Of a stretch of 64,000 nt of DNA, positions 15,411 to 15,517 are shown piece by piece. The stretch lies in the NCBI GenBank assembly GCA_964016885.1, contig OZ024740.1, positions 141,794,001 through 141,858,000 of the forward strand, written 5' to 3'. Position numbers and translations under genes: made by a program. The DNA is from Eledone cirrhosa. Its lineage: Eukaryota. Position 1 is the stretch's first letter. Every line of letters begins with the position of its first letter. Under the pieces are notes generated by a model that did no database searches, had not been told where the DNA came from, and saw only the letters and a list, made by a program, of their open reading frames with translations.

Positions 15411-15517
15411 TAGGAACGAGTAGGACCCCATTCCTATTACCCATTCTACTACCCTTAGTATTGAGTACTTTGGTGCGTTATGGTCCATCTGGTTCCTTAC
15501 CACATTTCCTTCGTTGT
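15411..15517. mobile_element. Miniature two-armed insert of the family A 3' tail in (TA)n
   Basis: Left arm taggaacgagtaggacccc has the same orientation as 25-43. The right arm ttcctattaccc...ccttcgtt is in the opposite orientation and matches the reverse complement of 34264-34349. Confidence 0.85.

Follow-up and report, generated by a model that had tools for sequence, protein, structure and literature searches.

A head-to-head Penelope-like insertion in Eledone cirrhosa with one arm ending at a predicted hammerhead cleavage site

Head-to-head copies of Penelope-like elements with a tail on one side are already known. For Poseidon of the green anole, the available sections of PMC11167929 describe in vitro reactions in which the Penelope-like protein nicks both strands and extends them, starting at two internal sites of the RNA. 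The substrate there was mainly uncut RNA, and those sections report no RNA-seq reads ending at the cut. Self-priming on an antisense template has been proposed in the consulted part of PMC3846280. For R2, the accessible text of PMC3774820 describes genomic 5' junctions that reflect the cut of an HDV-like ribozyme and carry non-templated bases and microhomology, as well as bases added on run-off. In the portions available of PMC4209133, PMC7229834, PMC7761336 and 10.64898/2026.07.22.740005, the in vivo activity of the hammerheads of Penelope elements is described as unknown. In the literature covered (main texts, with a minority of the subscription papers), we came across no account of hammerhead cleavage in Penelope elements leaving a footprint in the genome.

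Here we describe a short insertion in a window of 64,000 nucleotides of the Eledone cirrhosa contig OZ024740.1 (positions 141,794,001 to 141,858,000). The feature at 15411-15515 was confirmed as a head-to-head insertion, inside (TA)n, of a Penelope-like element that has Hydra-clade motifs. Our best reading, which we consider likely as a whole, is that its short arm was ended by copying off an RNA end that was probably produced by self-cleavage.

The insertion and its family

Element positions were numbered from the predicted hammerhead cut, with +1 the first base 3' of it and -1 the base 5' of it. In the window, +1 falls at 15429 (minus strand), 2455 (plus) and 43 (minus). Counts given below as by eye come from the listed matched strings of pattern searches, and the others were scripted. 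The features are collected in Table 1.

Table 1. Features of the insertion and of related copies in the window
Feature	Positions	Strand	Remark
Short inverted arm, element +19 to +1, inner end at predicted hammerhead cut	15411-15429	-	Exact match
Junction base A	15430		Likely non-templated addition, or mutated G+13 of the tail
Tail arm, element +14 to +98, outer end at the fixed 3' end of the family	15431-15515	+	Alleles T+71 and T+94 present
(TA)n target, left flank	15375-15410		
(TA)n target, right flank	15516-15535		First base G
Family A hammerhead-like motif; short-arm end at +19 of a long head-to-head copy	2357-2473	+	Cut predicted between 2454 and 2455
Second hammerhead-like motif, plus tail start	1-140	-	Cut predicted between 44 and 43
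Broken remnant, C-terminal GIY-YIG-type endonuclease region of the same 1-2473 element	1100-1810	-	Frames read separately
Family A stub, -27 to +98, reading through the cut site	34265-34389	-	Common case
Head-to-head copy of family C, a second hammerhead-bearing family	12211-12620		Used as replicate

The initial annotation had described a left arm that ends, on the minus strand, exactly at the predicted cut and then switches to the opposite arm, with an outer end shared with the long element nearby. Each part of this description held. The 15411-15429 arm is identical to the 19 bases that follow the predicted cut, a sequence with four matches in the window at up to three mismatches and none in 100 shuffles. 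After the single A the plus strand runs from +14 to +98. The outer end of the short arm adjoins (TA)n at +19, as the 1-2473 element does on its right (2455-2473), where TA overlap leaves the exact end ambiguous (2471-2473). The tail of that element reaches +98 just left of the window (L272). The 15411-15515 copy carries two private substitutions within 85 bases. Among the pieces listed from contigs of sequencing runs X1-X6, none spans 15411-15515. In X1 and X2, the depth over 15409-15428 is an indirect hint of contigs that cross the junction, and these runs may come from the assembly's own sample.

The 19-mer from +1 to +19 occurs 18,877 times genome-wide, and the first 30 loci share one head-to-head layout, in which an inverted arm to +19 and a direct arm to +98 meet at a junction and (TA)n flanks both sides. 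ATATAT continues 166 of 174 tail ends (overlapping loci unmerged). By motif, the order in L266-L271 and in the endonuclease remnant of the window is that of the Hydra clade, namely a reverse transcriptase (RT) with YRDDG followed by a C-terminal GIY-YIG endonuclease (IYQC...YIG). DKT replaces DKG (HSDKTG in L267), the CxCx5C linker is intact in L269, and CNLC and CKH are found around the conserved E and N in L268 and L270. The N-terminal motif is RWR instead of RWK in L268, the sole copy covering that region. Neither of two ORF fragments of the element had a match in Pfam. Placed by these motifs, family A appears to be a Hydra-clade Penelope-like element, which is a known element type. A non-LTR retrozyme, made of non-coding tandem hammerhead units, was also considered and rejected, since long family A copies are coding and lie head to head. 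None of nine long loci was a full-length copy with an upstream terminal repeat. L202 and L203, a near-identical pair 7 kb apart, have an unusual layout with two tail arms facing each other.

The window holds further related sequences. At 39834-39877, TA runs enclose a very short stub of family A with tail sequence from about +70 to +98. The stub at 26041-26168 belongs to a sister family, B, which has the same cut-region ends, a tail about 72% alike and an altered stem III. Other hammerhead-like motifs, several in head-to-head pairs, were seen at 12348-12450, 24425-24726, 25756, 48150, 59323 and 59745, and these likely represent other Penelope families. A tandem array of 311-base units at 5572-8216 (seven units on the minus strand and two on the plus) has a CUGACGA...GAAA motif in each unit, an arrangement that looks retrozyme-like.

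Arm ends at the predicted cut across the genome

The peak that the initial annotation had anticipated at the base after GUC was found, and it was sharp: genome-wide, the truncation points are not uniform. A pattern for short-arm ends from +8 to -8 gave 573 matches, of which 100 listed ones were examined and 72 extracted. The other 28 were judged from the listing to be read-through with a small change, and 9 of the 72 extracted also read through. Among the matches listed, 17 of 63 stops were at +1, while the other bins had a mean of 3.1 (p ~3e-6 after correcting for 16 bins, with curation by eye). The -7 bin held 10 of the 63 and has a 6-base microhomology from the stem III palindrome. The remaining bins held 0-5 each, with 4 at -1 and 3 at -2. 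Since a stall at stem III predicts ends at -1 or -2, the low counts there speak for cleavage.

A complete list of +1 stops had 85 matches, 16 reading through and 69 stopping at +1 by eye. Extraction of 30 of these matches gave 22 true stops, and because 6 unextracted ones are ambiguous the total is given as 63-69. The same design at -2 gave a complete list of 18 matches with 8-9 true stops, so that the genome-wide comparison is 63-69 against 8-9 (p <1e-10). The +1 pattern loses ends whose second base is A (8/15 in the short-arm test) and another quarter by its last letter. It misses about half its targets, which makes the +1/-2 ratio conservative. The copy at 15411-15515 falls outside both lists through the filter letters. 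Allowing for the ends lost by the pattern, we estimate the cut-site class at about 200 of 9,048 arms, or ~2%. Tail arms provided a weaker test, with 759 matches and 59 stops among the 100 listed. The +1 bin held 9 of these (p 0.011, uncorrected), no more than the microhomology bins at +6 (10) and -7 (12), and the +6 bin is made up of arms whose partners end at +1 to +3. Among 35 cut-class copies, no pair shares both flanks; single flanks are 69-95% alike, via neighbouring repeats.

Most family A copies read through the cut and stop at -41 to -45 (window about 2410-2414), the main stop for either arm, which lies in hammerhead loop II. Genome-wide, 4,882 hairpins end at -37 to -46, and the stretch from -34 to -46 holds the ends of 23 among 31 unselected short arms. 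Added A-runs often follow the -41/-45 ends. Two motifs at -45 and -41 resemble the initiator consensus, suggesting a putative transcription start there. If so, the site would likely produce short RNAs with half a ribozyme.

When one short arm stops at +1, its partner tends to respect the same boundary. The partner lay at or after +1 in 16 of 19 extracted copies with a +1 short arm compared to 6 of 31 unselected ones (p 9e-6). In the complete +1 list, 40 of 53 recognizable partners stay at or after +1 by eye and 13 pass the cut, 6 of them using a CC microhomology at -38. An earlier impression that partner arms never pass the cut (14/14 in an early set) was overturned by this full list. In another set, of 221 hairpins, both arms end close to the cut. 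Among the 50 listed and classified, both arms were at +1 in ~14, +1 was joined to +6/+7 via CC/GG in another ~14, the join used a GG(A/T)CC near-palindrome in ~10, and 5-6 ended past the cut.

A further group of 82 hairpins has both arms reaching +1. Among the 50 listed, 26 stop there on both sides and carry 1-6 unrelated bases between the arms, mostly A-initiated; the rest comprise 6 blunt joins, 5 with one arm at +1 and 13 read-through copies. An A directly follows at least one cDNA end in 23 of the 26 double-stop hairpins, and only 4 of their 52 cDNA ends show the C that a cap would be expected to leave. The inserts are of at least 15 different kinds, and several duplicate nearby sequence, as in polymerase-theta joining. 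In L289, both arms are at +1 and a 36-base GC-rich hairpin without Rfam identity lies between them (about 1524-1559), possibly a captured RNA or DNA. In L292, L037 and L281 (centre), the short arm ends at +1 and is followed by unrelated sequence without a tail arm; these are possible template jumps from the cut end.

Family C served as a replicate, with a canonical core, no G-run, no GC-rich stem III and only a palindromic loop III. Of its 26 hairpins, 7 were excluded as a subfamily or repeat with a different cut-site sequence. By eye, an arm ended at the family's own predicted cut in ~10 of the 19 usable hairpins; 4 read through, and the remainder either were uncertain by one base or ended shorter. 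These counts are small and lack a matched control, and family C appears to repeat the family A pattern in a weaker form.

The hammerhead-like motif and the origin of the cut-site ends

The predicted cut fits a type I hammerhead: stem I is ACCCC/GGGGU, GAAA and GUC are present, and stem III has 6 bp and a palindromic loop. The first core box departs from the canonical CUGAnGA. Among 101 full copies it reads CUGAGAA in 63, which gives a C3.A8 mismatch or a C3-G8 pair with position 7 missing, and UUGAGAA in 31, which gives U3-A8. The latter is a published covariant in Penelope hammerheads, according to the available text of PMC4209133. The U3-A8 frame recurs in one contig of organism B, where position 7 carries another base. 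The constrained hammerhead fold has -22.5 to -22.8 kcal/mol versus -25.1 to -26.9 for the best fold, which places it 2-4 kcal/mol above the minimum, and the folding z is 0.72. In Rfam, neither the window at the gathering threshold nor six loci at E values of up to 1 gave a hammerhead, the hits being noise from hairpins and microsatellites, and a loose hammerhead search pattern misses family A.

The two cores correspond to two lineages. The tail allele C+94 marks the U3-A8 lineage, being present in 14 of 18 U3 copies and 0 of 27 C3 copies. The alleles of the insertion itself are weakly linked to the C3.A8 core (T+71 in 5/27 C3 and 0/18 U3 copies, p 0.07). In cut-class copies C+94 was found in 4 of 42, which is like the read-through stubs (9/94) and rarer than in full-ribozyme copies (14/46; p 0.018). 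The U3 marker is common in long copies, at that same 14/46, and scarce, at about 10%, among short ones. Cutting by the U3-A8 lineage alone was therefore not supported, since cut-class copies are not enriched for C+94, and these copies do not come mainly from the lineage whose core looks better. The low frequency of C+94 fits trans cleavage, an assisted C3.A8 core or a non-ribozyme stop.

From the arm ends and junctions we infer dual priming, run-off, ribozyme cleavage and cDNA end joining. The endonuclease would nick both strands of the (TA)n target, and each nicked end would prime reverse transcription at a fixed RNA site, +19 or +98. These two positions would thus be internal RT start sites and the inner arm ends would be the points where the cDNAs stopped. 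Both cDNAs would run off the RNA 5' end, in ~2% the hammerhead cut, and the two cDNA ends would be joined by microhomology or blunt end joining. The template RNA's 5' end would usually be at about -45 and sometimes far upstream, with cut RNA as a minor template. Run-off from a self-cleaved end, as the initial annotation had proposed from one case, gains support from both +1 counts (17/63, and 63-69 against 8-9), the cleavage step being deduced from the footprint. That a defined RNA end existed at +1 is almost certain, and the hammerhead very probably made it. The copy at 15411-15515 quite probably belongs to this cut-RNA class. The non-canonical core, the fold above the minimum, the missing Rfam match and the lack of U3-A8 enrichment in the cut class all count against the ribozyme.

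One possible explanation is that the family peak is real and 15411-15515 is a chance member of it: a read-through arm was trimmed and joined through a 2-base CG microhomology (-1 to +12), and a G was later changed to A. L053 has exactly that CG junction, unmutated, the +12/+13 site serves as partner in three further copies, background stops are present at every position, and two private substitutions in 85 bases indicate that the copy has had time to mutate. However, G-to-A at +13 was found in only 3.9% of 228 copies examined, a rate biased low by the choice of loci through exact patterns, and G in CpG sites is lost only slightly faster than G elsewhere. An unmutated G junction is compatible with cut RNA too, and A is the commonest base after the last C in the cut class (43/71 by eye). 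The possible mutated junction gives coincidence roughly a quarter of the weight at this copy, and we regard this particular route as unlikely. The short hairpins might also be palindromes that collapsed once inserted, copies multiplied from a small number of masters, or fold-back artefacts of the assembly, with which the microhomology at many junctions (CC/GG, the GG(A/T)CC near-palindrome and the stem III palindrome) would agree. This is highly improbable, since the fixed outer ends of the arms differ (+19 versus +98), the inserts vary from copy to copy, and 0 of the 35 copies pair in both flanks. Collapse also offers no reason why both arms should stop at +1 with added bases.

Another possible explanation, less likely than a chance member, is a stop at +1 without self-cleavage, through a minor transcription start, a protein block to 5'-3' decay or an RT stall at the G-run or stem III. 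The non-canonical core and the resemblance of cut-class alleles to those of short rather than full-ribozyme copies would suit this. The far larger -41/-45 stop, with its 4,882 hairpins, shows that family A has strong non-ribozyme stops. Transcription starts follow a loose pyrimidine-purine rule, and the C|G at the cut agrees with it. Yet the coincidence is to a single base with low neighbouring bins, cap-type C is scarce (the 4/52 ends above), and family C, with a different sequence, has a boundary at its own predicted cut. Self-cleavage is preferred as the source of the +1 ends. How an imperfect core would cut is a separate matter, and a tentative, rather doubtful suggestion is that the Penelope hammerhead acts in vivo as a split or assisted ribozyme. 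In the split version, short RNAs from -41/-45 would hold the 3' half of the motif and be cut in trans by the 5' half on long transcripts, while in the assisted version the element's own protein would rescue the C3.A8 mismatch core. Either would explain why cut-site copies have short-copy alleles (C+94 at 4/42 versus 14/46). If this were true, the inner ends of head-to-head insertions would record past RNA 5' ends to the single base, a kind of fossil map that could be read from any genome with no need for RNA data.

Comparison with described systems

The footprint suggests that cut RNA was likely present in the germ line and able to serve as template, and it also shows that most insertions need no cutting. 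The paired stops favour dual priming as the origin of the head-to-head layout over self-priming on an antisense template. The arm-end test is cheap and applicable to every Penelope family.

Family A differs from the Hydra clade of C-terminal-endonuclease elements, as given in the available text of PMC8557442, in having RWR for RWK, a tail of ~79 nt compared to 30-40, and a hammerhead whose core is non-canonical, whose stem II is long and whose stem III is stable. With the minimal Penelope hammerheads and non-LTR retrozymes, in the accessible parts of the four hammerhead sources cited at the outset, it shares a type I hammerhead in a terminal repeat, the palindromic loop III and the U3-A8 covariant, but those retrozymes are tandem and family A is a coding element. 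There is also a likeness to anole Poseidon, where the sections seen of PMC11167929 likewise have a tail defined by two internal RT start sites, a hammerhead just upstream and a predominantly uncut template. Those sections report no genomic footprint, whereas in family A a minor genomic class ends at the cut. The precedent for such a footprint is R2. As described in the available text of PMC3774820, the cut of R2 sets the normal 5' end and was assayed, and its junction joins cDNA and target. In family A the ribozyme is a hammerhead instead of HDV-like, the cut-site copies are a side class of 2% seen as a genomic footprint, and the junction joins two cDNAs.
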